Assembly (NCBI GenBank): GCA_973895155.1 | Contig: OZ316893.1 | Span: forward strand, 26,834,798-26,898,797 | DNA length: 64,000 nt | Direction: 5' to 3' | Source: Marsupella aquatica | Lineage: Eukaryota; Plantae; Marchantiophyta | Shown: piece by piece, positions 23,421 to 50,393 of the stretch | Layout: the number at the start of each line of letters is the position of its first letter | Position numbering within the stretch: the stretch's first letter is position 1 | Notes under the pieces: generated by a model | Told to the model about the DNA's origin: nothing | Database searches by the model: none | What the model saw: only the letters and a program-made list of their open reading frames with translations | Program-made: the position numbers and the translations under genes

Positions 23421-24916
23421 GATGGAACAGAGTGACACAGAGATGTGTGAGTATGAAAGGAAAGCTATGGAACAACGAGCATACGTGAAAGCCAAAATCG
23501 CAGAACTGGATCTGGAAAAGGATGTGGCTGAATTGTAAGGGAACGATTCTCAACTACACCCCTCCGCTGAGTTTGTGTGACATGAATAGTTCAATGTGGC
23601 ACTAAAATTGTGACTGTATTCTCATATTGGAATGTCGCAGAGCCACAACATTTTCAAAGAAACAAAAGGAGTACGCAAGAAGGGTGACCAGCACTATCTC
23701 TGGGCCTGTGCGTCGGAGTGACAGGTTGAGCAAGAAGGTCGTACCTACAATGGCAGAATGTGGAGATGACATTGATGCTGCACAGGTGGGTGCAGACACT
23801 AGACAAGAAGATGCAGATGATGAGTATTTTCCAGAGGAAATGGATGAGGATGGGGTTATGAAGATGAATACATTGCAGAGCAGCCCCAAAAGAAACATGT
23901 AAGTAGTTTTCCCAACAAGGTTTTGAGTTAAAAACTCTTGTTTAGAGGTTTCATATGTTCAGTACTACACATATGTACCTTGCTTAGTTCCTGACATTGT
24001 AGTTGGTGATGTGATGCAGCGTCCTGCCAGTTCTGTTTTGCCTTTGAAGCCTGTGCATGCACCATACCAGCAGGGGGGGCTGACCTCTGATCAAGGTTGT
24101 CCATAGAGAATGTCCATAGAGAATAAGACAGGTGCTACAGAGAAGAAGTATGAGAACCTGGCAAATACTCGCTGTAATTTAGAGGCAACAAAGTTGCAGT
24201 CTGTACAAGCAACTTGTTTGACAGAGGGCAGTCAACCATGTTTGGATGAGGATGACATTGGCAAGGGAGTGGATGATATCAATGTTGGGGCAAATGAGGA
24301 TATCAGCAAGCATGACAATGATACCATTGAGCCAGATTCATGCTATGTAGATCTTGACTCCATTGCAGAGATAAATGATTTGCAGAATGTATCATTCTCA
24401 ATGACAGGTGTGCCTCTTGTTGAGATAAATCCAACCAAAGAGTTAGTTGGTATGACACTCCCAGGTGATGAACCTGCTACTGTGACAGTCCTAACAGAGG
24501 AACCTACTGAGCCTAGCTTCACTACTGTGAAGAGAGGAAGCATGCGCACACGAAGCAAGTCTGCTGGTGGGAGCAGAGCCACGTCAAAGGTTTCATACAA
24601 ACCTCCAAGAACAGTGCTGGCAGAAAGATCTAAGGTGGAAGTGGGGAAAGCACCTAATGCTGAGGGACAAAGTGGCTTGTTAGCTGTTGATGAGAGTGGA
24701 ACACGAGTAGGATTTGCCAGAGTGCAGGTTGGTTCCACAACGTTCCATGGCAAGAGGATTCCCCCAGGTTATTCAGTAGTGTTAGTCACATTACTAGTGA
24801 AACCTAAAGCTGTCCTTCCCATTCCAAACACAAATGATGATCCTCCTCAAAAGACACTTGGAGATGCTGCAGGTTCTTTGGTATTATGGCCAAGCAAGTT
24901 CATAGAGGATCCATAA
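23421..24916 (+). CDS. Spliced CACTA accessory (TNP1/TnpA-like) gene
   Basis: The N-terminal exon has EYERKAMEQR..KIAEL. The C-terminal VG.A.V....FHG..IPPGYSVVLV..L..P.A.LPIP....TLGDAAG..VLWP motif resembles the TNP1/En/Spm C-terminal domain. Probable exons ~23421-23535, 23641-23898 and 24020-24916. Confidence 0.65.
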
Positions 24917-25774
24917 CAATGTCATGCCATTATTTGTTTGTAGTGTGAGTCATGTTATGTAGATTTTAGATGTCAAGAAGCAGTACAAGAATCATGTCCT
25001 CTTGGAGATTCATAGTATCATGCATGTGCTTTCAGTTATCTCATCCTACAGTCATCAATTATGAGTTCCTGTTTTGTCTAAATTACATTGATCACATTGT
25101 AAACTATTCCATTGGAATTCAAATGATCTTCATTTTTTAGCAAGATTGTGATTGTGTTTAATTCTTATGAATGTTTTATGTAGGATCTGCTTATATGATG
25201 CTTTGTTTCATGTGGATGTCATTCATGTTATGTTCATTTCTTGTATTCAATGTGTTATATTTCTAAAGTTAGAACATCAGGTTTCTATGTATTGTAATGT
25301 CGAGTGCTCTCTCTCCTTATGAACTGTCCCTCTGTGTTCATTAGTCATGGTTATAACTTGCATGTGAACCTTATTAGTTATAAACATGAGTATATAGAGT
25401 CCCAAATGGTTCTGTTGTGTAACGTGGGCCAGGGTCTCCATTGGTCTCTCCTGTGACACTAAATAGTCACACGCTAGTCGTTGTTGAATGCGGGTAAGTC
25501 ATGTATGTGACTTACAATGTGACTCGCTGAAGTCATATTGCAGTCACGTCGAAACAAGGCTAGACTCCACAATAAAGTCACAGATCAGTCACAAATGGGT
25601 ATCAAGCAAGTTGCAAAGCCCAGTATCAATAGTGACTTCCATTTTTTGGTCTCAACTTTTGCAACTCCAAGGGTCACAGCGTGGGTCAAGTCACGTTGAG
25701 TCACAATGAAGTCACATGAGCCAAAATGAGTCATATATTGCGGTCTCAGTTCACCTCGGATTCTTCTAGTGTCT

Positions 25775-26460: not shown

Positions 26461-27974
26461 GGGAGGTGATATTGCTCCTGCTATGACCACAAATCCTAAG
26501 GATACTAAGATTGCTCAATTGGAGCAATAACTAGCTACTATGGCTAGTTCTCAGGTGAGACCTGCTTCTGGTGATGGGGCTTCTACATCCTATGGGGCTT
26601 CCACATCTTATGGGGCTGATGGAGATCTTGCCACTATGGGATTCATGTGTGGCATTGCACACATTGATGCATCAACAACTTTGACGCGTGGGGCAGCAAA
26701 AGCTCTTGAGCCTTGAGGAGCAGTAGTGGAGCTAGATCCATAGAGGGGGGATGCACATTGGCAGACAAAGCTTCCTCATTCTTTTACATTGGCAGAGACA
26801 GTTCAGACTGCCTCTATGAACCCGGTTCAGACAAACCCTAGTGTGGGTCAGTTGGCAGAATCAGGTAGTGATGCAGCGGGGATGACAGGTACCTTGCTGG
26901 GGGCGGCTACTACCATAGTGCGCACCCCATTATTTTCAGCGACAGACATGCTGAACTTGGGAGTTGGTCCAGCTAATGTGTTTAGATTGGCAATCACATT
27001 ATGCGAGGATACTCCAGTTTTGGCTTCTCGTGCAGAGGCAGCATGCAGTTCTAGAGCAGAAAAGTTGACACCGCCTACTACAACTAGTGAGACATGGCAT
27101 GCAGCAATGGCAAAGTTGATGGATTTGCCAGCACGCCCTGCATTTGAGAGGACTAGGTTTAAACCTAGCGTTGTGTCATTGGATAATCGGAGTGGTATCT
27201 TCCGATTAGTTGGGCCTACTGGAGCCATATACCAGCTAGAGAGAGTGTTACTGGATACTGGTGCTCAGCCCTTGATGTTGGGTAAGTCTGCGGTACGAGG
27301 ATTGGCATTGCGTCCAGACGATCTGGAGGAGTGTCCCTTTCCTATTTAGACTTCATTGGGGGGACTTACACCCACACAACACATCACCAGATGACCATTT
27401 GAATTGAGGATTCAGGAGGGTCATGCCAAGGATAGCTCCCACATACAGGCGCAAGCTATTTTGACTAAGGCAGAGTCCTATGATGTGTTGGTGGGATGTA
27501 CAGTGTTGTACCCCATGGGATTTATTCTTGATTTTTGGGATGAATCAGTGTCATATAAACCTGATTGGCAATCAGGAGATGCCAGATTGAGCAGATTGCC
27601 AGTACAATTTAGTGGACCTGTGGGAGGCCCTAAACCTACACTATTGTCTTTGGCAGCCTTCAGTGGTGTGATCACTGATCCTGATGATTTGATGGAGGGT
27701 AATGCACATGCAATAGATGTTCCATCAGTGGAGGAGTCACATGAGGAGTAGATGGTGCGAAGGAGCAATGTGGATTGGGATGATCCCAATCCAACTAGTG
27801 TTGTGCCACCAGTATGGGGTACTGCACTGGCCTTGCCATAGAGGGCAGCACAATTGGTACATGATGCATGGCGTCATGCTTTTACACCACAATCAGGAGC
27901 AGAGCAGTCTCCTACAAGTGGGCCAGTGACTCTTTCACCATTGGATACCACTCCTATTGCATGGCAGTATCCAC

Positions 27975-28925
27975 TAGAGGGTATTTGTTTGTTGGATCTA
28001 TTTGGTGGGATTAGCATTGGATTGGCTGCTATTCTTCAGGCAGGAATTCCTATGCGTCGCTACTTGTATGTGGAGACAGATGAGACAACACGAAGAGTCT
28101 CATTGCGCCATGTGGCTATGTTGGTGGACCATTATCCACAGTTGTTGCCAGTGGATGTTGTTCGTGGCTATCAGCATGCACTGCCTGCTGATATTTCACT
28201 GTTGGGGGCGGATCATTTGGATCGTGTTGGCCCTATTGATTTGGTGATTGTTGGTTGGCCATGTCAAGGCCAATCTAGAGCTAGAGTTGGACATGGACTT
28301 CATGATCCACGCTTTGCATTGTTTTGGGAGATGTTACAGGTATTGCGTCATCTCCAGTTCCATCAAACACATTCCCCTGCCTACATTTTGGAGAATGTGC
28401 CACTATTGGATGATGAGCGTCATCGACTTGTTGCTAATGTTCATCAGGTCAGATCTTGGATTGGACCTGCTGTGTTATTGGATGCTGCACGTGTGGGTTC
28501 TCATGCACATCGTCCACGCTTGTGGTGGACTAATTTGTTACCTTGTGAAGTGTTGAAGCGAGCATTTGATAGCATTCCTTGCTCAACATCCTTGGTGGTG
28601 GATGATATTTTGGATCCAGGGCGTTGTGCACAACATGTGATCCAGTCTGACAGACCTCCATTGGCAGTGGTCAATATAGTTGGTCGCCCGCGTTGTGCAT
28701 TACCCACTTTTGTGAGCCATTCTGCTTCACATGCATTTAGAGTAGGTGGGCCTGGACTTGTGTGGGATACAGCTCTACAGCAGTTAGTGGAGCCTATTGC
28801 TGATGAAAGAGAGTGTGCTATGGGATTTTTGATAGGCACTACTGCAATTGCGTTGGTGTCAAAGAGTTCTCGCCGCCAGGTCCTTGGTCAAGCCATGGAT
28901 TTGAATTGCTTGACTTGGATTATCA
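27975..28925 (+). CDS. C5 cytosine DNA methyltransferase domain within pol
   Basis: Motif I LDLFGGI, II YVE.D, IV GWPCQG, VI ENV, VIII RPRLWWTN, IX ERE.AMGF..GTT, X RRQVLGQAMD. Same reading frame as protease and RT. Confidence 0.92.
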
Positions 28926-31900
28926 GCTTGGGAGTAGCTGAACAGTTGCGGATGTGCTCTGCTGGTGTTACTGATCGTCCATCAGTGAGCTTGCGGTTCA
29001 CTGAGACAGTGATGACCACAGTTGGGGGCGAGCAGACAGTCCATGGACCTATGGCAGGATTGGCCAAGGCTGGACAGATTGTTGAGCAGGAAGGGACTGC
29101 TCAATCTACTACTAAATAGCAATCATCGGCTATCTCTTCTACCCTACAAAAAGATATTAGGGATCTGGTGGAGAGTTGGGAGCCATAGATTGGTCCTAAG
29201 TTAACAGGGGAGGAAAGACGTCGCATGCATCAATTCCTGAAGAGTTACTGGAATTGTTTTGCATTCAACATGAAGGATTTGGGGACATTGAAGGGCCTTG
29301 GTATTCAGATTGAATTGGCTAGTGATGCGTCAATCTTTTGTAGACCATATCGTTATAGTGACATGGAGAGAGCTCTAATTCAGAGCAAAACTCAGGATTT
29401 GTTGGAGGCTAGTTTGGTGGAGATCTCATACGGGGAGTATGCATCTGCCATAGTGATGCCAGCCAAGAAGGATGTGCATGGTGATTACACAGATAGGCGA
29501 ATGTGTGATGATTACCGACCTATTAATCGTCAGACAAAATCTGATTGATATGCCATGCCCACACCTGAGGAGATCTTTGATGCAGTGGGGCATGCAAAGG
29601 TTTTTAGTTCATTGGATCCGAGGGCAGGGTACCATCAGCTTCCAATTAGACATTCTGACAGGTCCAAGACAACATTCTGGGGAATTGATTCTTATGGCAA
29701 GGATCGTTTGTATCAGTGGTTGTTCTTACCATTTGGGTTGAAGAATGCACCAGCTGAGTTTCAGAGAGTCATGGATCGAATCCTTGCAGGTTTGGATTTT
29801 GTCAGATGTTATATTGATGATATTTTGGTTTATTCTTCTACTGTGGAAGAACATCAACGACACTTGCAGATTGTGTTTGAGAGATTGAGGGAACATGGAT
29901 TGAAGCTCCATCCCGGCAAGTGTAAGTTCTTCCAAGAATAGATTGAGTATTTGGGCCACACTATATACCCAGGGGGATTGGGTGTACAACAGACTAAAGT
30001 GGAGGCCATTACACAGATTCCTCGTCCTACTGATGTGAGTAGAGTTCGTGCATTCTTGGGATTGGCGAGCTACTATAGGAGGTATGTTAAAGGATTTAGC
30101 CAGCTTGCTAAACCTTTAACCATACTTACTAAATTGGATCAGGAATGGATTTGGGGTGATCATCAGGAGCATGCCTTTCAGGAGTTGAAAGAAAGATTGG
30201 CATCATCCCCTATTTTGAGAAGACCCATTTCAGGGAGACCATTTTAGCTACACACTGATTTGAGTGGAGTAGGACTTGGCGTAGTGCTGACTCAGAAAGA
30301 TGATGTAGGACATGAGTTTGTTGCACGGCATATGCCAATAGATCAAACAATTCAGTAGAGGCTAAGTATAGCTCTTATGAGGGAGAGTGTTTGGCAGCAG
30401 TGTGGGCTGTGGCACACTTCCGCTGTTACTTGTTTGGTAATCCTTTCACTTTGATCACTGATCATCAGCCTCTCAAGTGGTTAATGGAGTCTGACAAGCT
30501 TACTGGGAAGCTTGCAAGATGGGTGTTGTTGTTGTAGGAATATGATTTCCAGGTTGTACATAGACCTGGAAAAATGAACTTGGATGCGGATGGATTGAGC
30601 CGCAACCCATGTACCAGTCAGCAGGATGAGACCGGAGCCAGATGGCATGATGAGTCAGATAAGGAGATGGTGCCAGGATGGCATGCATCTGCCTTCCTTT
30701 GTTGGGTTCGAGCATGCAGTGGATCTGTGGATTCTACTTCATTGGATGAAATAGATGATGAGTCTTCAGATGTGTATGTAACTTCTGGACAGCAAGATAT
30801 TCACAATGATGTGAGAGTGTTGGAATATTTGCGCAGTGGTTCTATTGTTGGTAGTGTTGATGCCAAGGAACGTGATAGGGTTCTACAGAGAGCCAAGAGG
30901 TTTCGATGGGAAGGAAACCATCTTTTGAGAGTACTACATGATGAAAAGGTATTGGTGGTACCAAAACCATCACAACGAGTACATTTGGTGCGACATGCGC
31001 ACGAGGAGTTGGGTCACTTTGGTGTGAAGCGCACTTACAATTTGTTGCAGACACAGTATTGGTGGCGTGGTATGCACACTCATGTCCAGCAACTGATAGT
31101 TAAGTGTGGTATGTGATTGAGTGAGGGCATCATTTAATGTTCCCACTCCCCAGTTGCATCAATTGCCAATCATGGGTTTGGGGTACAGATTGAGTTTGGA
31201 CTTTGCTGGTCCATTGCCTCTCACCCAACGACATAACCGTTATGTTTTGGTTATGGTGGAGCACTTCTCCAAGTGGATTGAACTAGTGGCATTGCCAGAT
31301 AAAGCTAGTGGAGGAGTGGCTACCACATTTATGGATCGAGTACTCAGTCACTTTGGAGCACCAGCTGAGGTGTTGACTGATCAGGGCACGGAATTCCGTG
31401 GAGATTTGAGGGTTTGTGTGAGCAAGCTCTGATTGACCATTGTACTACTTCTCGCAATCATCCTGAGGCAGATGGATTGGCAGAGAGAGTTGTACAAACT
31501 GTGAAGAGAGGATTGCGCAAGTATGGCTTGCAGGTTGGTCATTTGGGAGACTGGGATCTCCAACTACCTTGGTTAGCTATGGGCTACCGTTTCAGTCGAT
31601 AAGCATCACTTGCATCCTTCTCACCCTATTTCTTGCTATATGGTAGAGAGCCGGATTTGCCAGCGGCTATTCGTGTGATGTTGCAACTATTGTGGATTTG
31701 GATGATCCAGATATTTGGGTAAAGGTTTGTTCAGAGAGGGCACGCGTTTTTGAGAAAGTCATGCCCATGGCCTTTGACAACCTTGCTATTGCCCAGCATC
31801 GTGATACTTTGCAGTATGCTACTATTCATGGAGGAGGTTATCGCACGAGGATTAGGAGATTCTCATCCTGGTGATTATGTTTATTTGCAGCAGACAACAC

Positions 31901-32092
31901 CAACAACGCTTGATGTGACCGCAGGGCGGACAATCTTGCGTGTGCGTGAAGTGTTGCCTTCTGGAGTCCTTATGTTGGAAGGGCGTGATGGTATGGTTTG
32001 GAAGGATCATGTGCGTAATTGTGCACCATGTCACCTTCCAAACATTGATGGCACTGTGGATCCAAGCTTGGCACATGTACGTGCTAGCTTGA

Positions 32093-32232
32093 AGTGTATG
32101 TTGTGTGGGTCTGCTCAGGAAGCAGCTACTATGTTGATTTGTGATAGGTGTTCTAGAGGATGGCACATATCGTGTTTGGCACCACCCTTGCACATGATTC
32201 CTAGCGGATCATGGTTTTGTCCTCAATGTTGG
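32093..32232 (+). CDS. PHD finger at the integrase C-terminus
   Basis: CMLC..MLICDRC..GWHISCL.PPL..IP.GSWFCPQC (C4HC3). Confidence 0.92.
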
Positions 32233-32399
32233 TGATGCCGACTAGTTATCATTTGTGTTCTTATGGAAGATATAGATTGCAGGTAGGTGATCGATGGGGC
32301 TCACTTGCACTCGGCCTCCTGATCTTCGCACCTAAAAAGGTGTATATTAACCTTGTAGGACTCATGGCTAGCTAGAGTTAGGGGACCTCACTCCCAGCT

Positions 32400-32409: not shown

Positions 32410-33384
32410 TTTTGGGTTTTGGGCATGTGTGGACATTGGTTCCATTTGTACTCCATTCTCTTATGTTTGTGTTAGTGGATTGTGAATATGTTTGGATATG
32501 TGTGACAAGCGATGTATGTTGCACTAGTACATTTTAGGGCCATTATCCGATAGCTATTCCGTCGGATCCCTTCGGAAACTTCATTTCGGAAAAATCAACT
32601 ATCCGATGTAACCCGCTTCGCAATATCCCATCCAATCCTCATCGGAAATCAACCATCGGACTTACTTCGGACTTTCCGTTGATGATGCCGACGGACTTTC
32701 CGATTCCAACCCATTCGCAAACCTGCACATCCGATCCAATACGTATCGGACACCAACAAACAGACCTTCTCTCAAAACAACCATTGTCCGATAGTAATGG
32801 TATGGGATAGTTCCATAGTTTTTGCTACGTACATTGCGATGCGTGTAGTATCGGAGTTTACGATACGTTTAGTATCGGAGTTTGCCTTTGGAGAATTATC
32901 GGATATTGCGTTAGATTTGGTATCGGATAGTGCGATGTAATGAGGTTTGGAAAATCCAATGACGTTGCCATCGGACACATTGTTTTGATGTTTTGGTTTT
33001 GTTGGAGGGGTCCGATGCGGAAAGGATCGGATGCTGTGAAGGGGATTGAAACGAAAGGACCGATGAAGGTGCAAACGGACATCATAACGGATGGCTTAAT
33101 TTGTTACAATAGCTACGGTTTCATGGGTGGTTATTTTGGGTTTGAGAACATCAACCAATATATTAGGGTCCAAAGGAGGCTCAAAACATGTGGTCAAAAT
33201 CTCATATTAAAAAAGGGGATGACCCCGATATGTACAAAATGGAATGGGCCTACCTAGTAGACCCATCTCAGCGACTGTTTGCTCCATGGGAACACCTAAA
33301 TGGAGCACTGAGTAGAGACTACACTCCATGGCACCTGCTAAGATCTAATCAAAGCTACCAGACCTACCTACACGGCACTAACCT

Positions 33385-35900
33385 CTAAAAAGATGTGTTC
33401 CGTCCCTTCTTCTTCTTGTGGCGAGAGCGAAGCTGGGGAACAGGTGCGGGATCCACAACCGGTGGAGCCACCTGTTGACCAGATGGTGGGTATAATCTTG
33501 TCCTACCCCCTGACCCACTAGATGCACCGCTAGGCACGGTAGAAGTCCCACCAACCCCTGACACAACAGAGTGAAAGGAGGCCTCGCCCCCCGGCAGACC
33601 TACTAGAGTGATGAGAGGCTGCGGCTGCGGATGATGCATGTGGCCCATGTCGTGCTGTACTGCCACCTGACTCACGAGATGGCGCTAGACCCCTAGAGCC
33701 ACCATCGTCCAAGTCACCACTGCCTCGACAAGGGGGGCTAGGTGCAGCAGATACTTCTCAACGAGGGGGGTTAGGTGCAGAGCATACTCCTGAGCGATGG
33801 TGTGGGCCTGCACCACCTCTACTACCCCCTGAAGGCCCCGGCCTCGTAGCCCGCGATGCTCCCCGTGACTGATGAGAGCTCACACCATCAACAGCATGTG
33901 ACCCACCTCCCCTCCCTCCCAATATGAGGGTAACATGAGGTATCTGGGCAGTAGGGGCAACTCTAGGAACAGTCTGGGCAACTATAGGAACAGTCTGGGA
34001 AACTCTAGGAATAGTCGCGGTAGCTCTAGGCTCCCTCTGCAACCCTGCCTCAGATGTTGAGTCCTCATCATCTGACTCCCCAGACCCCTCCTCCTCCTCC
34101 TGCACATTACAATTAATTAAAGTAAGGAACTTGGTCAAAACTCTACAAATGTAGCAGTGCTCTAGCTAAGCAAAATATTGTCCCAACTTAGGTAGGGGGA
34201 GGGAACAATTACCTCTCCCAGCTCATCCTCAATCTATCACTTTAGAGCACGGGGTCCATCCCTTGCTGCTAGTTCCCTCTCTTTTGGATCAATGGGACGA
34301 CCATACTCCCTCTCCTAACATTTCAAAATAAAAAGACCACTTCAGCACAATAAATTTAGTTTCAACCATAAAATCCACTCCCTATACCAAACTTCTCCCT
34401 CTCAAAACTCTATGCCTTCTATAACTTCTATAACTTACTTAACCCCTAGCAAATACTCTAAACCCTAAAAAAATCACCAGTGAACTCAAGAAGGGGTCCA
34501 TTCCGGAATTTCATGCAAGTCAAGCATCCCTATCCTATGCAATCAAAAAAACCCTAAACCCTACCCGTTTTAAACAAACTAAACCCAAATTCACTCAAAA
34601 TATACTCGTTCCGATGCAGCATCCGATATGGATTCTATTGGACTGCTATTGGACCCCTCATCCGCTAAATTTTAATGTTACTATGTCCGATGCGGGTTAC
34701 GACGAACAAACATCGGACTTAACAGTCCTGAGAGCAAAACAAGGGGGATCGGATCGTGATAAAGCAAAACGGGACAACCAAAATGTTCACTCTTCGCAAG
34801 AGAAGTCAGGTGGTCAGGGAGAGGAGCAAGGGAGGAGGGAGCTAGGAGGGAGGAGGGAGGAGCCACTTACAAACTCGGCCTTCAATCGATTGGAGCCGCC
34901 TTGCCCCATCCGGTGAGTCACAATGGGCCTCTCTTCTACTCGCTTCAATGCTGCTATGATGTTTGCAGGAGGTTTTTGAAGTCTTGCTGCTTGAGCTGCC
35001 CACTGTCGAAGGTTCAGTTGGAGGGGTGCCATGTCAATATCCTCCCCGGCAGCTCACTTTTCTTCTGCAATCCTGATTTCGTTGTCCCAATGTCGTCTCT
35101 TTAGCCAGGCTCGAACAGAGAGCTCCTCCTCAAGCCAAGCTGTCCATGCATCCTGGGGAATCACATCTGGACACTGGTGCTCCCTGACCACCTCTGCATC
35201 TATTGGCAAATCAGTAAGGTAATCCCTCATCTTCTCCCGCACATGATTCCTTGCATCTGAAACAGAGGCTGAAATTTGACTGTTTAGAAATTTGTCTTCA
35301 AGGTGGGCTCCGTTCTTGAATCTTTCTTTGATCTGCTCCTGAACCCTGGTCCTCTCCTCCTCTGTTTTCTTACCCCAGTAGTCTAGTGGCCCAAAATTTG
35401 CCCTCACAACCTGCAAGAATTGGCTGCAGAACAAATTGTAGCTCCTAGGTATTGGAGCCCCACCTGAATTGATAGCCGGCTCAGGTTGCAGAGCCCTCTC
35501 AGCCTCCCTTCGCCTTTGATCCTCAACTAGCAGCCTCTCTGCCTCCCTAGCTTATCTTCAAAGCTTTTTCTCCCTTTTCCGAGGAGAGAGAGCCTCCTCA
35601 CCATTTGGCCTAGCCCTCTCCGCCTCCTTTCTCTTCTTCCTCGCCTCTTTCTCTGTTGCGAGGCCTGCTGCAGCAGCCTTCTCTGCCTCACCTTTTGAGG
35701 CATCAAGCAAAACCTGAAGCATCGAGACTACTCTTGCTGCATCCTCCACTGAAAGCCCTGCCTTGGCCACAAACAACTCCCTCATTATCTCCTCATATGG
35801 CCGGGATGGCCCAGCCCCGTCTCCCCCATCACCCAATCCTCCTTCCCCCACCATCTCTCCTCCTTCCCGAGCTCCTCCCCTCTCGGCCTTAGAAAATTTT
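33385..35900 (-). pseudogene. Divergently oriented, spliced TnpA/Ptta-like accessory gene of CACTA-2
   Basis: W.......R....I..RF, CPDVIPQDAW..W and HRMGQGG (Transposase_24-like), with donor TTT|GTAAGT near 34870. Acidic and low-complexity 3' exons; stops and frameshifts present. Confidence 0.6.
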
Positions 35901-36852
35901 CTGAAATGACTGATGTGCGAAGGAAGCCCCGTAGTGTGCGCCTTCGCAAGCGCATCGGGATTTACGGATTTCAAATTTTGAATCAAGTCCGATTGTTTCT
36001 GCTTCGAAACATCCGTAGCGTATAATATTGAATGTCAAATCGGACCTTCCGATGCGTGTTGCATCGGACCCCTCCTCCGGCTCGTTATTCCTCGCTTTTA
36101 TGAAGTGTGATACGTTGGAAACGGTATCGGACCCCTCGTATAATATTATCGGATAGGGGGTTAAGTAGGGCTTATGTAGGGGTCATGTAGGTGTATGTGG
36201 GAAGGACCGGTTGTATTAACATTTAATCATCATGTATGTTTGAATCAGGTTTTATAGGGCCCTACATGTGGACACATACCGCAGGGGGTTGGCAACGGTG
36301 TCGTGGATGTGATATATTGACCTTCTTGCAATTTTGGGGTTTGTACCTGAATCCAGATTTTTTTGTGATATACTTTGGTTATCCATGTTCAATTTGCTAA
36401 TATTCGTCTTTGGGTTTGATGTGTAGTACCTTGGTTTTGAAGGGGTGGTTAGGCTTTTGTAGGGTGTTAGCTAGGTAGGTTATTTTGCAATGCACAGTGT
36501 GAGACCGCGCATCCAAAAGGTATGATGCCCCATCCATTTATTCCTTGATCCTTTAGGCTATTTCAGGTTTGGCATGCAAGTTTTTATCATATGTGCTTGA
36601 GCTTGTTTTCGGAAATTGTAGATCATGCATGCTCATTATGAAAATGTCCACCTTGCAAAGATTTTGGATATCCCCACACTTTGTGTATAGAGATACGGCC
36701 TAGTAGGCACGGCAGAGCGCGGGTATCATTGAGGTATAGCAAGTGTTGTATATATGTCTCTCATTCAATTGTTTTTCTAGACATAAATATTTGTCTTGCT
36801 GGTTTTTTTCTTTCATCCAACATATTGTCATGGTTGTATGATATATATGCAG

Positions 36853-38169
36853 ATGTCTTGCTTCCAATAGTTCCACGTCGGATTCAAACTCAGACACGAG
36901 CTTGTCTGAGGAGGAGGTTCCTCCACCCCCCCCTCCAGACCAACCTCGTGCTCGGCCACTAGGGTCCATACCTTGTTGGTGTGTGAGATGTAAGGGACTT
37001 GTGGTTCGACATGCCTGGGAGACTTGTGAGCACATCAAAAACTATAGTCGCCACGAGGGTGATACACCAGGGTATTTGCCTAGCCAGGTAATAAATACGT
37101 CCCTCCTTCATTCCATGAAATTCCAATAATTAGTCCACAAATGCTAAATTACTTTACATCTAAACAACAATTCATGTATTGATTTGTGTCAAATCATTGT
37201 TTGTTGAAATAGGTGCCTTGTAGACCCCCACCTCCTCTGGTTGATAATGCTATGTGGTTGGAAGGGTTTCTAGCAAGGGCTAGTGAGTTGCTTGCATCTG
37301 CCCTTGCCCATCCACCTCTTAGTCCCCCTGCTCCTATCCCCACACATGCGCATGTAGACGAGGATGCACCGGTCTCTCGACCCGAGGAAATGGATACTAG
37401 GGTCCTACGTACACATTCACGGTCTCGCAGACATAGATGACAATATGAACTGGTGGAGCAGGTAGAGAATCGGGAGGAGGCGTTACGTAGTGATCGACCA
37501 CCCGGAAAAGGAGATTATATTTGTGTTGAGGGCCGGTTTGGACTATCTTATCTCACTGGTAGGGCTGCTGATGTTTGGAAGGACTTTTCTCCTAGTCTCT
37601 TCAAATTTCCAGATTTCATTCATACTGATGAACCAGTTGACATATGGGGTCGGCCTTGGATAGTGAAGGCATCCTCTATTGGTGCTGATATAGGATATGG
37701 TCTATATGCTTTGGAGGACATTGTGGTCCCTCCAAAGCCATGGAGACGTGGATATGACGGAGAGCACCTTTCCCGGCACCTTTTCCCTTACATTGGGGCT
37801 GTATTTCATGCAAAGAGTTGGAAGACTTTGTTGCGTCAGCACCCAAGCTGGGGGGTGTACGCCTTGAGGATGGACTCAGACCCAGATGAGGTTTTGACTA
37901 GGCCGTGGCATTGTAGGATGATTGATGGTGACCCTATTCAGAATGGTAATTTAGCAGGGTACATCAATAGTACAACGGGTAGAGGTAGAGATTTTGAGGC
38001 TAATGTAGAGTGGATCCAAATTTTTGGCCCTCCTAGAGATCCGTATTTTGTGAAACATATGGATGACCATATCATGACAGTAGCCATTAGGACTATTAGA
38101 GCCGGTGAGGAGATATTGTGTGAGTATGAGTGGGACGCCCCAAAATTGTCCCTACGTTGCCGTCCATGA
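36853..38169 (+). pseudogene. SET-domain gene: CxCxxC..H exon (to 37087) + SET exon (37213-38169)
   Basis: VKASSI..GYGLYALEDI, IDG..GNLAGYINS, ANV and AIRTIRAGEEILCEY. GT-AG intron 37088-37212 in phase 0. One CGA>TGA stop at 37438 and a probable +1 frameshift near the start. Confidence 0.82.
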
Positions 38170-38297
38170 TAGTATGTTGGACTTACATGCATGTAAATCT
38201 TACATTGAATTAATGAGATTCATGATGATTTATATATATATATTGATGATTGTAATGAGATTAATGTTAATGAGATTGCATTGATGTTGTATGATAG

Positions 38298-41200
38298 AAT
38301 CAATATGTACAATCTGATATTGGGGTCATATCACGAGCTATGCGACAACACATTGTTGAGGCCATGGTGGCCAACCATGGGCATGATGGAGGGATGCAGG
38401 AGGATGATGTACAACATGAGGGTGATAATCCTACTCAAGCACATCTGGATGAGGAGAGGGCCATGGATGAGGTCATGGACCAATTTTATGATGATGATGT
38501 TGATATTGGTATGGAGGATATGGGTACAGCTGATGACAACACCACTCATCCAAGACCTTCTAGGGGGGGACAGAACAAGGATTGGGAGGAGGCTCAACGT
38601 CATGCTCGTACTCGCATATTTGAGGGTAGCACCTTATCTCGGCTCTTTGCAATAATGTTGTTGCTGAATGTGCAACAAAGACATGGGGCTAGCAACCTAC
38701 TTTTGGATGATGTTTTTCGTACCTTGCATGATCACATTTTGCCACCAGGCAATACCATGCCAGCCTCTTGGAAGGAGGCAAAACAAGTGTTGAAGTCCAT
38801 TGGCCTCAAGTATGTAGTGATACATGCATGTGTGAATGATTGTATTCTTTTGAGGGGGGAGCATGAGAATGCAACTGCATGTCCTAAGTGTGAGAAGCCG
38901 CGCTACCGTGATGACATGTTGACAGGGAAGGTGCCTCAAAAGGTTATGCGATACTTTCCTCTCATCCCCCGATTGCGACATCAGTACCGTTGTGCAGAGT
39001 TAGCTGAGTACATGGTATGGCACTCAAAGAATCATTCTGATATGGCTACGAACTCTAGTGCCATGCGGATGATGGTTGACTCTCCTGCCAATCGATTTTT
39101 TGAGGGCAGATGGGGGGAGTTCAGCACTGAACCACGACATGTTCAACTTGGCTTGGCAGCTGATGGTATCAGCCCTTTTGCATTGGCGGGTAAAGCAAAA
39201 CCATATTCAGTATGGCCAGTAGTTTTGACTAACTACAATATCCTTCCATGGATGGCCATGAAGAAAGGTCATTTATTGCTCTCCATGATCATCTCGGGTC
39301 CTAAGCAAGTAAAAAAGATTGACATCTACTTGCAACCATTGATTGATGAGCTTTTGCAACTGTGGAGAGGAGTGGATTGTTATGACGGACGTCGCAATAT
39401 AGGAGGTGTACCTCGCACGTTTACCCTCAAGGCCATCCTTATGTGGACCATGCATGACCTACCAGGTATGACCTGATAAACCTTAGCTTATTTCCTTGAT
39501 GTACTACCTTAAATTTAGTGTGCATTAACCTTATTTCATAATTGGCTGGTTGTATATGGGCTTGGTACAGGGTTTGGGTATATCTCTGGATTGCAAACAT
39601 CAGACTATCGAGCTTGCCCTTCATGCGGACCGGATTTGGAGGGAGTGGCAAGACGCAAGTCAAGTACTTTGCGTAAGATAGTTTACATTGGTCATACCAA
39701 ATCTTCCAGCAGACCATCCTTGGAGGAGTGATCATTTCTTGTATGACATTGATGAGGGCCAACCTGATACTCGTCCTCAACCTCAGCGAAAGGATCCAAC
39801 ATATTGGAGAGAGGTATGGGAGAGAGTTCAAGACCCTGATGATCCATTACAGTTTCTCCGATGTGGCATGACCCGTTTATCTGCATTGTCACAGTTGCCA
39901 TATTGGTCAGAGATGCCCATTAATCACTTGTTGGATGCGATGCACATTGAGGGAAATGTGGGGAGATCATTGATTCGTCATCTATATGGGGAGAAGAACC
40001 ACAACTGGAGAGAAAGTTGTGAGGAGATGGGGATGCATGGTCTTTTGGGTTTTTGGCCATCTTTGGACCCCCTTGGTGATCCCCCTAGCATCCATCCTCC
40101 TTGGGTTTTGACCAGGGCAGAGCGCATAGAGTTTCGCAGACGGATTGGGTCAATGAGGTTTCCCACAGGTTATGGTGCCAATCTTCGTAAGGCATTTGGG
40201 GGGGATGATTCTCCAAAATGGCCATCGTACCTAAAAACACATGATTATCATCGGTTACTAGAACATGTCATTCCAGTTGAGATTATTGGATTGGGTAGTG
40301 AGGAACTTCGTGATGCTCTTTGGTCATTGGGCAAGTTTTTGAGATGGGTATGTCAGAAGGAGGTACCAGAGGATGACATTGCTGCGATGGAGATATTTGG
40401 AGTAGAGGTTGTTTGCAAGTTGGAGAAGGCACTTCCACCCTCATGCTTTGATGGTCAGGTTCATTTCCTCATACATTTAGTGCGTGAGGTAGCAATTGCA
40501 GGCCCAGTACATTGTCGATGGATGTATTGGGTAGAGCGTTACATGGGGGTGATGAAGTCATATGTCTCTAATCGGGCTAGGGTGGAAGGTAGCATTGCAG
40601 AGCGTCATCTTGGAGCAGAGAGTATGTTTTATTGTACAAACATAGTTGTCACACTAGATCCAAGGGCACCTAGGGGATGGATAGATGAGGCGGCACGAGA
40701 GGCAGACTATTAGGATGATAGACTCACTGGGGCATCAGGAGAGCATGGCTTAGGCTCAGCAGAGCGTTTGCAACTTACAACATTTATATTGTATAACTCA
40801 CCAGAGGTTGTAGGGGAGTGGACAACATTTTATGAGGAGGAGAAGCAAAATAGTCGACGGCCACGGTTGTTTCCCAAGTTTCACCCATACATGAAATCAA
40901 AGTTGTTAGAAGTGGATGCCTTGGTGGGTACCGGAGACAGTATATTACATTACCCACAAGTGACTGATAAGCTTCGTACCTTGGTTCATGGTCCACTGCT
41001 TAAAGTCACGACTCGGACGACAATGTGGTCAAAGGGGAGACATTTTTGTGTGGAACGACTTGATGAGAAGAGAGCAGCTACACAAGATTGTGGGGTGATG
41101 GGTTGAATTGGTTCACCCAGGATTCCTAGAGTAGCACGTCAAACATGAACCCCATTCGCTCCACCGTGGCCCATTATGGGAAGATTGATGAGATCCTGAC

Positions 41201-41543
41201 AGTGAAGTACCATGCACATACTACTTTGGAGGAGGTGGTATTTAAGTGCAAATGGTTCAAGATGAATCTTGTAGGCAACAATCGAACATGTGAAGATGAT
41301 GCGTGCGGATTTACCCGTTTGAAGACATCTGCAAATAGTGTCATTAGTTCTAATTGGAGGTCCTTAGATCCCTTTGCCTTCCCACGTCACCTTGAGCAGT
41401 GCTTTTACCTACCCTATCCAGATGACCCACATTGGTCCATTGTCATGCCTTATATCCCTAGATCACGGTCTATAGTCCAAGAGAGACCCAATGTCGTTGT
41501 AGTGGAAGACAACGACATCCCCGACCCTCCACAAGCTAGTTAG
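38298..41543 (+). pseudogene. CACTA-2 TnpD-type transposase
   Basis: IHACVNDC, MRYFPLIPRL, RHVQLGLAADGISPF, HDLPG (intron 39466-39570), LDAMHIEGN, KTHDYH, WMYWVERYM and DPFAFP..QCFY. Frameshift near 39695 and stop at 40711. Confidence 0.92.
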
Positions 41544-42321
41544 TATATTTTGTATGTAGCTAGGCCCCCCCCCAACCACACCACCTTCATGTTTTTTTAA
41601 TTGGCAATATAAAAGTTGGCATCATTACTTCTTTAATTGTCATGGTATGCACATGCCCAAAATCTCTTGGTTATATATAGAAGTGTCCTTACCTTATATA
41701 CCCTTCCTAAGAACCCCCCCGCCTTATGTCCCATTGACCGTCCCATGAAAAAGCCATCGGATTTCCATCGCACCTTCTAGAAACAGAAACCAGACTGATA
41801 CTTCCAACTACGGACTATTCCATATAAAACCCATCTGACACACATTTCCGATCCTCTCCACAACGTACACCTTCTCCTCCTTTGTTGACGAGATATCCGA
41901 TCCAACATCCGACGGACAATGTCTGACATAATTTTTTATGCACAAACTATCCGACCCTAAACCCAACGGACACAAATATCCGATGCATTCCATGACGGTC
42001 CTAGTCCGATACAACTACCAACGCAAACATCTTGCGATGCATTAAGGTTCGGACGAATTATGCGGTCATAGCGACATAGTTTCCGATATGTTTAGTGTTG
42101 GATACTGTCCGATAGTAGTACGATGGGACAGTGTATGCGATGGGTTTTACATCGGAATATGTAGATCCGATGGTATCAGGATCAGAAAATACGTTGCGGG
42201 GCATATCGGATATTGTCCGAAGTGTTTGGCATGGGATGGGTGACGTTTGGCTCAAAAGGAGTATCGGAAAACCGCCGAAAATGTACTAGTATTGTGTAGC
42301 AATGTGTATGCGCACGACAGC

Positions 42322-44161: not shown

Positions 44162-46431
44162 TTGCCAATGGGGCATTACCGGCAGGTCACTGGACGTGTT
44201 GTGGACTCCCGTGGTTTCTCAAAGGACGGTGGAGTGGGCAGACACAGTTACTCACGACAGGACGCATGTTCTTACGAGGCTCCTCTGGATTGTGGCCCTG
44301 CTGACCTTGCGAAGCCTCTGAGGAGAATCTCTCTTGAGACTGCTAATGTGCCTTTGGAAAGGCTAGATCCCTTTGAGGTTGAATCCGCGCAATGGGACGA
44401 GAGACACGAAGCTATTCAGAGGAATTTTGAGGCGGTTGAAGAATGTGGTCAAGTGGGTACATATCGTCTTGAGGGGAACTGGGACGTCCCTGTTGCTCAT
44501 CGTCGACCGCTGCCAATGGGGAATTGTTGGCCAGCTGCTACGGGGACTAGCAATGGGGTGACGATGCCTGTCAATGGGAGGATTGCCAGTCCTGCGGGGA
44601 CCAAAATTGCTTCTCCTTTGGTGATGGATCAGAATCAATGTCACGGAGGGGATTCAGTGGGGATCGAGGAACTGGGGGCTGCGAATGAGGAAGTAATCCC
44701 GGAGGAGTGCATTGATATTCTGAAGAAAATTGTTGAGGGTTCGACTGATACCTGGCCATCTAAACTTCATACTACCTTGGTCTGGCTTGTGGAAGAATCT
44801 GCTCTTTCTGTCCACGAGCTTTTCCATTGCTCTATGTTATGCTACTTCACTGATCGGGCGCCCCTTCTTCCCGTGTTCAAAGACTGGGTTGCTGCTGAAA
44901 TGGTGGAAGGGATGGGATGGTCGGTGACCCAGACTAAATATGTGGGTAAAAATTTCTTCTTGATTGCATTTGAATATCCATAGCATAGGGAGGCGGCTCT
45001 TGCACAGGCACCTTGGTTCTTGGAGCGCAAATTTATGTTCACATTTCCCTGGGACCCATCTTTCGATGTCAAAAAGGAGTCATATGTGAAGCTCCCTGTG
45101 TGGATTGAAATTCCCTTTCGCTCTTTACTACTGGAGGGCTGTCGTAAAAGGATTGCGGCATCTTTTGGGAGAGTGTTGTACTACATACAGGGTGATGAAC
45201 GGAGCTCCTATCCACATGATAGGGCTTGTATCCTTTGGGACACCCGGAGGGAGGTCCCCTGTAGCGTGAAGGTGATGATTTGGGAGGATATTGCTATCTG
45301 GCAGCCAGTGATTTTCAAGAATATTCCTTATCACTGCTACAGGTGTAACAAGAAAGGGCACTTAGCTAGAGATTGCTTGACTATGGAGGCTGCGGAGGAG
45401 GCTCGGGCTCGGAAGGAGCTGGAGAATGTAAACGCTTTGGCCCCGGTGGGGGTGGTGGTAGGAGTGACGGCTCCAGTCGCTGCTACGAAAGATGATAGTG
45501 CTGCCACGGCGGAGGAGCATGTGAGGATTAACGAGGGTAATGGAGTTTTGGTTGGTGCGGGCAACACTGATAGGAGGGCTGAAATTTCGGCGTCCATGCC
45601 TCAGGATTCAGGGGCTTTGAAGGGCGTTACTACTGAATTGGTTGTCGGGATGACCCCCCTTCGGAATGTGTGCGGAGGGGAGGTCTTCCAGATTTGACGC
45701 ATCCTTTGGAGGCTGGTGGACTTTTAGCGTCAAACGGTGGGAAGCTGTGTGGGACTGCGACAATTCTTGGATCCGCTGCTGGTGTAGTCGCAGTGGGACA
45801 TTTGGTTAGGAGTGACGGAACTCCTCTTCTCCCTGCTGCTGTGTTGGACTCTCAAGGACCAAGAAGGGAAGTGGAAGATGAGGGGCAGGGGATTCTAATG
45901 CGAGAGTTGATGAATAAGGAAGCCATTGAGGGTCCGGTTGCTGCAATGGTGGCCTCTATTGCGGCGGTGGAAGCATCTATTGAGGAGGCTGAGCTTTCAC
46001 TTGGGAACGCAACTGAGGGATCGGGTGTGGATGAGAGGATGTCTTACCATGGAGAATCAGACCCCGGGCTATCAGAGTACGAGAAGTATATCTCTAAAAG
46101 TCAAATTAAAAAGGATAGAACAAGGAAATTGGAAAGACGGACACCACCAACTGAGAGGAAGAACAAAGGGAAGAAGGAACAAAAGAAACAACGATCCTTA
46201 CATTTTGAACCATTGCAATTGCAGGGTGATGGTGGGGTGATGATGATTGATCAGGCTAGCGGAGGAGCGGACAAAGAAGACTGGGCGGTGCCACCTAGGG
46301 ACTCGGGAGGAGGCAGTGAGATGGCGGGGACTGGAGTAGACCTGGGGAATATCTCTTATGCTCGGGCTCTAGAGGGTGTACATGTGGAGACCGGGTCCCC
46401 TCCGGTTGAGAGTTGTTTCCCTATGATGTGA
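44162..46431 (+). pseudogene. LINE ORF1 (DUF4283/RRM-like + CCHC knuckle)
   Basis: GKNFFLIAFE..APWFL..PWDP.F..LPVWIEIP and CYRCNKKGHLARDC. Stop at 44981 and a frameshift near 45680. Confidence 0.85.
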
Positions 46432-46463
46432 CGAGCTTGAAAGGACTGAAGGGGGTGGGAATT

Positions 46464-49400
46464 ATGGATCCTACATGGTATTTTGCTACTTGGAATGTGT
46501 GTGGGCTTTGCGACCCCAATCGGAAGCACATTGTTAAGGACTGGGTGCGCTCTCTACGTCACCCACCTATGGCTTTAGCACTGCAAGAGGTCAAGGTGGA
46601 TCAATTGAGGCTGGACATTGCACTGCGTGCGATCTTTCCAGGATATCAATGCTTCTCATCTGCACCGGACGAAGGTCATGGTGGTTCAGCCATTTTGTTG
46701 CATCCATCGCTGAAGGTGATTGTTTCTGGACAAGTTGATTTGGGAAGGGCGGTATGGATACAAGTGGAACATGAGAAGGGGAATTTTGGGCTGATCAGTA
46801 TATACGCTCCTAACAGTTCTCGGGAGAGGGTGCTACTCTGGAATGAGATAAAAGAGGTGCTACCTTTGGATCAATGGATATTCTGTGGGGATTTTAATAT
46901 GACTGAAAGCGGGGATGACTCTACTGGCACTGGTCCGCTCTTGCGAGGTCGAGAAACAGAATTTTGGCGCTTCCTAAAAACTAGATTTAACTTGGAGGAT
47001 GCGATGAATATTATCGGGGGGGTGAATGGATCAAGATTTACATGGAGGAAAGTTCGGTTTGGAAGGGTTACTCAATCAAGGCTGGACATATTTTATTTCA
47101 GTGAGCAGGGTTGGTGGATTGGAAAGTTGATACAGCTGGTGCACGAAGGGGGCACTGCACTCTCAGACCATGACCCAGTTCTCGTTGAATTTAAATTAGG
47201 TAGTGATGTGGGGACTGGATCGGGGAGGAAGTCATCATACTTCAAGGCCAATCCTGCCTTCCTATGATCAGAGGAGAACTGGGGGAAATTGAAATCGGCA
47301 TGGGAAGAAGGGAAAATGGAGGCAACTGACCCTCACCTCCGTTTTGCGCAGGCTAAAAATAGACTCAGAGAGTGCTTGAAAGGTATACAAGGCACCCCGA
47401 TGGCTTAGCAAATGGCGACGGAGGTGATAAGGGAGAAACTTCGACTACTGAAGGTTACATTGATGGGGGAGTACTCGGATGGGACTTTGAGTGAGTACTT
47501 AACGATGGAGAATCAACTGCGCACAGTGGAACATGACGAGGCTCAACTGGGGCGCAAGCTTGCTAGAATTAAGTGGCTGGGTGAGGGTGATGAGCCTTCT
47601 TGCTTTTACTTTGCTACTGTGAAAGCTAAGCGCTGTCGAGAAGCTATGCCCTCGCTGCTACTTGAAGATGGAACCACGATTACCAATGAGGCGGAAGTGC
47701 TGAAGGAAGTGGAAAAGCAATGCACAAAATTATTTGCACTTGAAATTCGGACTGAAGAGGGAAGTAGAGAGGTCAGAGAAGCACGTAATAAATTGTTGCG
47801 GAATACCGGGAGGGCCCTGAATGACGAGGAGTTGCATGCACTCGAGGATCTTCCGCTTCTCAAGGAGGTTGAAGGAGTATTATGGATGATGCCTGCGAAC
47901 AAAGCTCCGGGACCAGATGGGCTCACTGCGGAGGTCTTCCGTAGATGTTGGGCTTTTATTAAGAATGACATGATGGAGATGATTCAAGCATTCTGGGTCA
48001 ATGGGGAGATGGCTAACAATATCAAAGATGGGATTATTAAGTTCATCCCTAAGAAGCCTGATAAGAGGAGACTGAAAGACTGGCGGCCACTCACGATGCT
48101 TAATACAGGGTATAAGATTATTGCTAAGTTGCTTGCACTTCGACTCAAAGTCCTGTTACCCAAGCTCATCAGCGTGCAGCAAACTGGCTTTATCCCCGGT
48201 AGACATATCCTGGAGAATATTTCCATTGCATGGTTGACGGATGACTGGTTGAAACAAAACAAGTGCGAGGCCCTTTTTTTAAAATTAGATTTTGAAAAAG
48301 CTTTTGATAGAGTTGATCATTCTTATATTTGGGAGTCTATGCACCTTCTCGGGTTGGGGGATCATTTTATCATGTTGGTTAAGGCACTGTTAAGCAATTC
48401 CTACTCTCGTATCCATGTGAATGGACTTTTCTCCGATGAGATTCCCCTGCTTCGTGGTGTGAGGCAGGGATGCCCGCTCTCGCCGCTGCTTTTTGCCATC
48501 TCTACACAACCGCTTATGGACTTTCTTGATGCAGAGCTCAAGGAGGGCAGGCTCAGTGGAATTCAAATCACTGCTGGGTTGACTATTTGTTACAGACTTT
48601 TTGCAGATGATTTGGGGATGGTGATACCGGCCACTGAAGTGGCTTTTGTTCAAACAAGGGTTGCACTAGCGTGCTATGAGCTAGCTTCGGGGGCTCTGCT
48701 TAACCTACGCAAGTCGGTGGTTATTCCTCTGGAGCTGGCAGTGATTCCGGGTTGGCTTTCACAGTCGGGTTGTACCATTAGCAGATCAGGGGAGGTGCAG
48801 CGCTATCTTGGGGCACCACTCGGCCTGAACCTCCAGACTTCCCAACTGCATGACTTTTGTTTGGATAAAATTGCTCAGCGACTGTCCTTTTGGACTTCCA
48901 GGCTGCTATCCTTTACTGGTAGAGTGCTGTTGGTGAAACATGTACTGTAGACTATTCCTATTTACCATATGATGTTCCTCAAGTCCTCTGCGGAACTGGC
49001 AAAAAAGATGATTGCCCTCTGCCGAAACTTTTTATGGGGTTACAATCCGGCTGGAGGCCGTAAGGTTCCTCTGGTGGCTTGGGTTACTTTGGCTCGACCC
49101 AAGGTGATGGGTGGGTTGGGATTCAAAGATTTTCGGATTCATTCGGATGCCCTTTTGAGTCGCTGGTTCACTAAGGCACTGGATGACCCCAGCTCTGAAT
49201 GGGCTCGCCTACTTGGGGCTAATCTGATGTTGGTTAAGTGGCACAATCAGAAGGGTATAAGGCGGAATGGGTATTCGGTTAAGGACAGAATTCTGTTAAG
49301 CTCACCGTCAAATTTTGGTAAGCTTAGATATATAGGTAATCTATGGCAGGCTTGGGCGCCTCTTCGGGAATATCTGATCTTCTGTCCACTGAATGGAACT

Positions 49401-50393
49401 ATTCCTGGGCACTGGGGAATGATGGACCTGTTGAACTGCCTGGAAGGATTTCAATCATTACCTGTTGGCGTTTTGCATGCTCTTGCAGAGATTCGTGGGA
49501 GGATTGGACTTAGAAGAGTGGATGCACTGTGGTCGGATCATGGCAGATGTTGGATTTCGGTGGCTGCCAGGATTGATAAAGTTAGAGGTATTGATCGGGA
49601 GAGGCGGGAGATGTGCAATAGGCTGCTAGACACAATTTGCTCTGCTAGAAGGTGTATATCTGGTGCGGTATCCTCTCCTACTTCCTGGCGTTGGGGAGAT
49701 TGCAACGATAAGATCAATGTTTTCAGACTTGAAAACAAAAGAATTTACCAGATGCTGCGACCTAAGGGATCGGAGACCGGTAGACTGAACAGAATCTGGG
49801 GGGGCTCTCGGACTGAGAATGAATGGAGCAAGCTTTGGCTCAATCTGTGGACACTTGACATTGCAACTAGGGCTAAGACCTTTCTATGGCGGATCATTGC
49901 GCAAGGGCTTTTTTGGGGCGTGAGAGCTCTTAAAATTGGTAAAGGGACAGGGAGGTGTGGGATGTGTACTGGCTCATGGGAAACGATTCCTCATATTTTC
50001 TTTGAGTGTAGGCATGCATGTAGGTGCTGGAGATTAGTACAGGATTGTATGGCAGGCTGCTTCACTTGGCCTTGTTTGGAGATGCTTCCGATGCTGGACT
50101 CTACTGTGGGTAGGGAGAGCATGCATACGGTGAAGGCCTTTGTAATGTACCAAGTTCTATGGACTATTTGGCTTGGCAGGAATGAGCAGATTTTTGATCA
50201 GAGAGACAGACGTAGGTTTGACCTCACACTTGTTCTCTCCGAGGTTGTGGACTCGCTGCATGCTGCTTGTAGGGTCACGCCGCCTGGTCGGAAACTCTCC
50301 AGGCTGCTTAGTGCCAAGGGAACAATAGAGATACTTAGGATCAGGTGGATTCCTCGGATTGGCAACCGGTTTTTTTCGTTGCCCGGTCTGTAG
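46464..50393 (+). pseudogene. LINE ORF2 (APE endonuclease, RT, zf-RVT)
   Basis: TWNV.GL, LQE, IYAP, GDFN, SRLD, SDH.P, KAPGPDG, KLDFEKAFDRV, GVRQGCPLSP, LFADD and C..C..ET..H.FFEC. Stops at 47265, 47406 and 48948. Confidence 0.95.

Follow-up and report, generated by a model that had tools for sequence, protein, structure and literature searches.

We analyzed a 64,000-nucleotide stretch of the liverwort Marsupella aquatica (assembly GCA_973895155.1, contig OZ316893.1, positions 26,834,798 to 26,898,797), referred to here as the window. It contains a CACTA (En/Spm) DNA transposon in which an exon encoding a SET domain lies between a short leader exon and the transposase exons. On balance, we think that this is a dead copy from a bryophyte CACTA lineage whose transcripts are spliced in two ways, one of the products being a leader-SET fusion that is a predicted lysine methyltransferase. 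A transcript that includes the SET exon would end in the A+T-rich spacer behind it and encode the fusion. If the SET exon were skipped, the same transcript would join the leader to the transposase and restore an N-terminal domain that other plant CACTA transposases appear to carry in one piece. The fusion would add methyl groups to chromatin lysines, most likely at copies of the same element, and the shared leader might direct it to the DNA of the element or to the transposase. Positions are those of the window (Table 1), and a slash marks a splice boundary.

A preliminary description of this DNA had identified the SET domain, and this was borne out. The exon scored 27.3 bits against the Pfam SET model (PF00856; cut-off 22.4), and 8 of 10 SET-bearing relatives were also above the cut-off. 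A phmmer search of the PDB with the single SET open reading frame (ORF) returned nothing relevant. A profile search of the full library gave 135 representatives at E<=0.001, and these, together with earlier matches, supplied the 82-sequence alignment used for the final fold. (An earlier fold, from 10 sequences only, had a predicted local distance difference test score, or pLDDT, of 42 and was not used.) The AlphaFold (AF2) model from the 82-sequence alignment had a pLDDT of 92 and a predicted template modeling score (pTM) of 0.88. The top PDB matches listed by Foldseek were all SET proteins (E 3e-6), and structure comparison with VIA gave Z scores of 11-12 at a root mean square deviation (rmsd) of ~3 Å (best Z 11.9, rmsd 3.1, 126 aligned).

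The best sequence match with a solved structure was LegAS4 (E 1e-7), and the next was EZH2 (9e-4). Six active-site or cofactor residues of LegAS4 are named in the available text of bioRxiv 10.64898/2026.05.29.728679. Counted on our alignment, LegAS4 Y135, Y159, N181, and Y220 correspond to window Tyr 37789, Tyr 37858, Asn 37966, and Tyr 38125. These are conserved as Tyr or Phe in 77 of 77 sequences, Tyr in 78 of 82, Asn in 71 of 82, and Tyr in 66 of 71. The equivalents of S158 and Y231 are not retained. Two positions before the terminal Tyr, the residue is small (Ala, Cys, Val, Ile, or Thr). A small residue at the Phe/Tyr switch position permits multiple methylation, so several methyl groups might be added. 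Judged by these residues, the SET product is probably an active S-adenosylmethionine-dependent lysine methyltransferase. Canonical host SET families (SUV39, SET2/NSD, TRX, and E(z)) have an NHS motif and pre-/post-SET or other flanking domains. By its sequence features, the SET protein of this CACTA element is not a member of such a family: it lacks the NHS His, and SET is its only Pfam domain. Pfam found no methylase domain in the window SET exon or in full-length relatives. Pattern scans, which reach close relatives only, found no SET relative among 92 candidates in viral contigs or 110 in prokaryote genomes, and the viral structure matches were generic SETs of 13-18% identity.

The leader ends at the donor CAG/GTAATA after 37087, in phase 0 with the frame encoding IPCWCVRC, and this is the sole CAGGTAATA within the window. 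The proposed resemblance of the leader to the transposase-associated domain (Transpos_assoc, PF13963) held in profile comparison. Here hhalign gave a probability of 95%, the CxCxxC-x12-H pattern and its spacing agreed, and 0 of 1000 shuffles reached the score for each of four leaders. (For the profile, 82 of 87 flagged proteins were supplied and 79 kept.) Relatives and profile comparison together weakly suggest that the leader is homologous to Transpos_assoc. Our literature search found no dedicated study of the function of this domain, on which the shared leader offers a handle. TGCAG at 36847-36852 directly precedes the ATG, and relatives begin with MQM, LQM, or AQM, which suggests a noncoding exon upstream. 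What had been called the first intron is therefore probably the first coding intron.

Metagenome loci and gene models from Calypogeia, Sphagnum, and Riccia show the same order of leader, SET, and transposase. Related CACTAs have the SET exon, which is a CACTA-encoded family feature and not a one-off capture. A metagenome scan yielded 25 loci, mostly of one subfamily whose SET is ~40% identical to that of the window and which matches named Sphagnum models. The leader was present in 13 of the 25 and a transposase frame lay downstream in 15; the remainder end early or are rearranged. Leader and SET are found together in gene models from Calypogeia, several Sphagnum species, and Riccia sorocarpa. 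Among named sequences, a model from Calypogeia fissa has the closest SET (69%), and the Sphagnum cluster P0316 has 360 members and an open frame. The ratio of nonsynonymous to synonymous substitution (dN/dS, by simple NG86, with the deepest pairs near saturation) was 0.31-0.43 between subfamilies (0.16 for one pair) and 0.49-1.21 between near-identical copies. A transposon gene that is under selection, but decays in individual copies after insertion, would be expected to show this pattern. By this measure, the SET exon is under purifying selection between subfamilies. A transposase tree placed the seven SET-linked transposases on one side of a branch and 29 others on the other side, with support of 100/99. 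Only CACTA-1 of the window, among those 29, is known from the same host kind, and the branch may partly mirror host taxonomy. Locus L010 was omitted from alignment A2 because of a stop codon.

Two observations on the family stand apart from this. In the SET tree, the Sphagnum-type sequences and a Calypogeia subfamily (P0316, L008, L001, P0143, P0346, and P0147) grouped with 100/100 support, apart from the Calypogeia-like subfamily of the window. Judged from this tree, horizontal transfer of the SET element between moss and liverwort is possible. The distant members P0270, P0273, and P0206 comprise sequences from Ginkgo biloba (Gb_21150) and Adiantum nelumboides, together with a Calypogeia model whose N terminus differs.

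The preliminary description proposed that the leader donor at 37087 could join in frame to an acceptor at 37212 or to another at 38297, which reads into the ORF at 38340, and that a TGA at 37438 interrupts the SET frame. We checked these positions against the sequence, and all were correct. ATAG/ at 37212 opens the SET frame, and a frame of 392 codons begins at TGATAG/ (38297) and continues past the ATG at 38340 into the transposase. The donor was a phase-0 GT in all 13 loci holding the leader. Across the 25 loci, the SET acceptor was TAATAG/ in 16 and GTAG/ in one divergent locus, 3 were disrupted, and 5 loci start inside the exon. The transposase frame began at CATAG/AAT in 14 of 15 loci and at CATAA in one, and L001, from a third subfamily, has CATAG/AATATG. 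The window spacer ends at its only U-rich YAG (GATAG/AAT) and contains three TGTA motifs. TGTA motifs can have a role in polyadenylation. By its composition and motifs, the spacer is likely to be both the 3' end of the SET transcript and the 3' end of a long intron. The Transpos_assoc motif was absent from the transposase exon in all five cases tested. Among other plant-type transposases, PF13963 was flagged in 87 of 120 long ones listed (one bryophyte model included), and CACTA-1 of the window has the domain within one ORF.

Annotations place the leader-to-SET join in 16 of 67 protein records. Taken with the conserved signals, this makes it very probable that the leader is spliced to the SET exon. 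Splicing of the leader to the transposase, skipping the SET exon, is likely on the same kind of evidence, and so is the two-product scheme as a whole. The earlier claim of two in-frame products therefore stands for the acceptors, which are conserved in phase, and for the leader-to-SET join, which is present in Calypogeia and Sphagnum models, but not for the exact leader-to-transposase join (see below). Neither junction was among the 15 of 95 joints displayed from four sequencing runs, and the runs behave as DNA contigs. Contig 13 of run X2 keeps both flanks of the first coding intron with 124 different letters between them. At position 38327, nearly all contigs have A and the window has C (a synonymous difference); the A gives a donor-like GG/GTAATA 27 nt inside the transposase exon.

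Several of our results weigh against the reading given above, and the alternatives draw on them. Some concern the enzyme and its leader. In VIA, the SET model is equidistant from H3K4, H3K27, H3K36, H4K20, and SET7/9 enzymes, and with its matches tied at Z 11-12 the substrate class is therefore unreadable from the fold. The NHS-motif His is replaced by Ser in 79 of 82 sequences. The post-SET region is absent, the window exon stopping 13 residues past the terminal Tyr. In Pfam searches the resemblance of the leader to Transpos_assoc fell short of the cut-off: the window leader had no match even at E<=10, and those of its relatives were below the PF13963 cut-off (best 16.3 versus 27.7 bits). Also, the profile compared with hhalign was cut around the CxCxxC motif, which favors a match.

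The single likeliest role of the enzyme, and the most speculative part of the proposal, is that it is recruited through the shared leader to the DNA of the element or to the transposase and there writes a mark that opposes host silencing. We offer this tentatively. The splicing model might instead be correct and the SET product methylate a non-histone target such as the transposase or a TnpA-like protein, lay down a repressive mark that restrains its own element, or bind without catalysis. These roles are together about as likely as an anti-silencing writer, a possibility still short of an even chance. The missing NHS His and post-SET region and the equidistant fold are compatible with them, and the available text of PMC5890265 describes retrotransposons with DNA methyltransferases (DNMTs) as elements that carry silencing-type enzymes. 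However, the active-site residues are conserved across the 82 sequences, and LegAS4 also lacks the His yet methylates H3K14, according to the available sources on it. In its broadest form, our proposal is an old bryophyte CACTA clade with a leader-steered, self-targeted histone methyltransferase that writes an anti-silencing mark, with splicing deciding between "open my chromatin" and "jump." That much is doubtful.

Other results concern the second splice. The exact join of leader to transposase start was found in none of 74 records. Five Riccia models reach the transposase start from inside the Pro-rich linker, and five further models fuse SET-exon sequence with the transposase. In the Sphagnum type and in one Riccia subfamily, a Met occupies the same position shortly after the transposase exon begins (EDMLPRRLR and FEMYPRRLR). 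The window residues before Met 38340 did not match those of L002 significantly (203 of 1000 shuffles were as good) or those of P0013; against two Riccia models the match was borderline. Furthermore, the metagenome loci are mostly one ~90%-identical subfamily and therefore provide only two or three independent observations. The basis for two-product splicing is comparative signals, and this too counts on the negative side.

The shared Met and the missing join would fit two tandem genes, with the leader belonging to SET only and the transposase expressed from its own promoter or by re-initiation at the Met inside its first exon. EN/SPM families alternate between spliced and split-gene layouts, according to the available text of PMC13547354, and 33 of the 120 listed transposase records are without a PF13963 flag. 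We nevertheless consider tandem genes rather unlikely. The transposase frame opens exactly at a U-rich TAG/AAT in the window as well as in the 14 loci, and the spacer is just 128-219 nt and intron-like in composition. The shared Met is missing from the window, P0013, P0214, and P0349, and the transposase would be left without its usual N-terminal domain. A single leader-SET-transposase protein is very unlikely. Models P0013, P0214, P0313, and P0349 do join SET and transposase sequence, but they do so at different junctions, most of which interrupt the SET domain. In addition, the window, L001, L003, and L008 all have a stop at the end of SET, and no phase-0 donor near it is shared. A triple fusion by way of a conserved donor was rejected because no conserved in-frame donor near the SET stop was found in relatives. 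Neutral capture of a host gene fragment, as in Pack-CACTA elements, with chance splice signals is scarcely credible: the window copy is broken in many places and in L016 the 8 kb downstream of a truncated SET contain no transposase, but this is contradicted by dN/dS and by the order conserved in liverwort and moss lineages, and the transposases form one branch and SET-exon depth is of the same order as that of adjacent transposase bins in all four runs.

Two-way splicing, the arrangement that we favor, has a precedent. The available texts on En/Spm describe TnpA and TnpD as made by alternative splicing, with some families split (PMC13547354; bioRxiv 10.64898/2026.08.24.746577). Like maize En/Spm and Arabidopsis EN/SPM3, this element is a CACTA with a transposase and an accessory regulator from one unit, by splicing that is predicted here. 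In En/Spm the accessory product is the DNA-binding TnpA, whereas here it would be a SET enzyme sharing the N-terminal exon, and a TnpA-like candidate is separate, head-to-head on the opposite strand.

The novelty of a transposon-borne SET domain was overstated in the preliminary description, because published work already describes SET genes on DNA transposons, among them a lineage of the EnSpm superfamily. PAG2 of red-algal Plavaka elements (EnSpm superfamily) is a SET gene (bioRxiv 10.1101/2025.02.11.637652) and likewise a case of SET carried long-term by a DNA transposon of this superfamily. Compared by description in the available text, PAG2 is a separate gene with a fused N6-adenine methylase; the window element lacks a methylase, its SET exon is fused to a leader, and its transposase belongs to the plant Transposase_21 type. 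HarbingerS and MuDR elements of Phytophthora, as well as Helitrons, also bear SET methyltransferase genes (PMC12730594; Bostrychia preprint), but they are other superfamilies in other hosts, and the available texts describe accessory genes and mention no shared exon. The same two sources describe VANC of VANDAL elements as anti-silencing and as inducing hypomethylation. VANC is not a SET enzyme, and the likeness is a functional analogy only, that of an element-encoded factor acting on its own chromatin. As far as the available descriptions go, the bacterial SET proteins LegAS4/RomA (PDB 5czy, 8swi/8sr6) share the minimal SET, YIN-x-S in place of NHS, and four aligned active-site residues. They differ in their ~20% identity, a VIA Z of 11.0 (versus 11.9 for other SETs), and an ankyrin/cSET part that is not found here.

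What appears to be new is that, in a clade of land-plant CACTA elements, SET has the N-terminal exon in common with the transposase. SETMAR is a domesticated host fusion of SET and a mariner transposase. The window element also has SET and transposase domains in one locus, but its SET is inside a mobile, multicopy element and has its own stop (for SETMAR and a catalog of transposon fusions with SET domains, with 823 chromatin-transposon fusion models, see the available text of 10.1101/2021.11.30.470311). Our literature search, which had Repbase Reports and most subscription papers outside its reach, found no bryophyte CACTA with a SET exon, and the available texts of PMC4158355 and PMC11982613 hold nothing on one. 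Bryophyte transposons are repressed partly by PRC2/H3K27me3, according to the available text of 10.1101/2022.10.24.513474. Therefore, one can test whether a plant transposon marks the histones on its own copies. In the sources available, the roles of transposon SETs are so far predicted only, and this family sits in tractable bryophytes. It encodes a compact (~350 aa) predicted enzyme whose substrate is directly assayable, and open-frame models exist.

Table 1. Features of the SET-bearing CACTA element in the 64,000-nucleotide window (TIR, terminal inverted repeat; LTR, long terminal repeat)
Feature	Position	Strand	Evidence
Left target-site duplication, TTG	32519..32521	+	Sequence
Whole CACTA element, 9,770 bp	32522..42291	.	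TIRs, TTG duplication, empty-site joints; host site is an LTR
Left TIR, CACTAGTACATTTT	32522..32535	+	Sequence
Head-to-head second gene, broken by stops, limits approximate	33400..36030	-	Homologue upstream of leader in 8 of 25 loci
Leader coding exon: Ser/acidic stretch and CxCxxC-x12-H (Transpos_assoc-like)	36853..37087	+	Sequence, relatives
Predicted intron, GT..AG, 125 nt, 71% A+T, phase 0	37088..37212	+	Composition, contig
SET exon: Pro-rich linker and SET domain, own stop at 38167-38169	37213..38169	+	Pfam, alignment, fold
SET core: GxG 37693/37699, Tyr 37789, Tyr 37858, Asn 37966, Tyr 38125	37693..38133	+	Alignment
A+T-rich spacer, 128 nt, 75% A+T	38170..38297	+	Composition, motifs
First transposase exon: phase-0 acceptor TAG/AAT, Transposase_21 begins, no Transpos_assoc motif	38298..39465	+	Pfam, alignment
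Remaining transposase: end of Transposase_21, DUF4218, DUF4216	39571..41543	+	Pfam
Right TIR	42278..42291	-	13/14 match to left; terminal base mutated
Right target-site duplication, TTG	42292..42294	+	Sequence

The element is a CACTA (En/Spm) and not a HarbingerS, with both transposase and ends of CACTA type. All transposase domains scored above their Pfam cut-offs (Transposase_21, 128.6 bits; DUF4218, 100.2 bits; DUF4216, 31.1 bits), as in the TnpD type. The 14-bp TIRs match at 13 positions and are flanked by a 3-bp duplication at both ends, as in CACTA elements. Of the 15 window sites with ATCCGAT or ATCGGAT, 11 lie within the two element ends in the manner of subterminal repeats, a raw count without a shuffle control. 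All four runs, compared with the window, contained empty-site joints (32518>42292). Homologues of the minus-strand second gene were found in L004, L005, L007, L008, and L022-L025. This gene had no Pfam match, and an Atlas match to PF03004 at 0.88 is a weak lead. It possibly encodes a TnpA-like protein. TnpA-like proteins are seemingly confined to flowering plants, according to the available text of a 2026 preprint.

The window copy is dead. The TGA at 37438-37440, to which this had been attributed, is present, but the damage is greater than first described. The leader is not in frame with the ATG at 36853, which is 235 nt from the donor compared with 231 or 234 nt in eight relatives (of four other leaders audited, one has 230 nt and three have no ATG at that place). 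The closest leader relative, P0292 (83%), reads in one frame through MQMLTSDSSTSD, and the window copy therefore has a 1-base insertion at ~36856. This insertion kills both predicted products, SET and transposase alike. The SET exon also has an in-frame 12-nt duplication (~37762-37773) that is missing from most relatives, and the transposase has a frameshift at ~39700, a TAG at 40711, and a TGA at 41104.

The window holds further mobile elements. A second CACTA (11845-25771) has an NSD-like PHD cluster at 16928-17635 (Pfam 23.8 and 23.6 bits, under the cut-off), twin BRCT domains at 18183-19100 (above the cut-off) upstream of its transposase, and a Transpos_assoc-like domain inside the transposase ORF. 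An LTR-type element (27842-32235) encodes a C5 DNA methylase (35.2 bits; cut-off 22), an integrase zinc-binding domain, and a C-terminal PHD finger (44.7 bits). It recalls the charophyte KnitGypsy-Dnmt3 elements of PMC5890265, in the available text of which the words "liverwort," "Marchantia," and "PHD" do not occur. An L1-type long interspersed nuclear element at 44162-50393 (DUF4283, zinc knuckle, endonuclease, reverse transcriptase, and zf-RVT) has stops and frameshifts. On the minus strand, 3332-4462 is an ankyrin-repeat ORF of 375 aa. Lastly, 10213-10650 is an array of ~70-bp units with the palindromic core TTGGA.TGGGATCATCCCA.TCCAA, and an extra copy lies 17 kb off, at 27769-27801.

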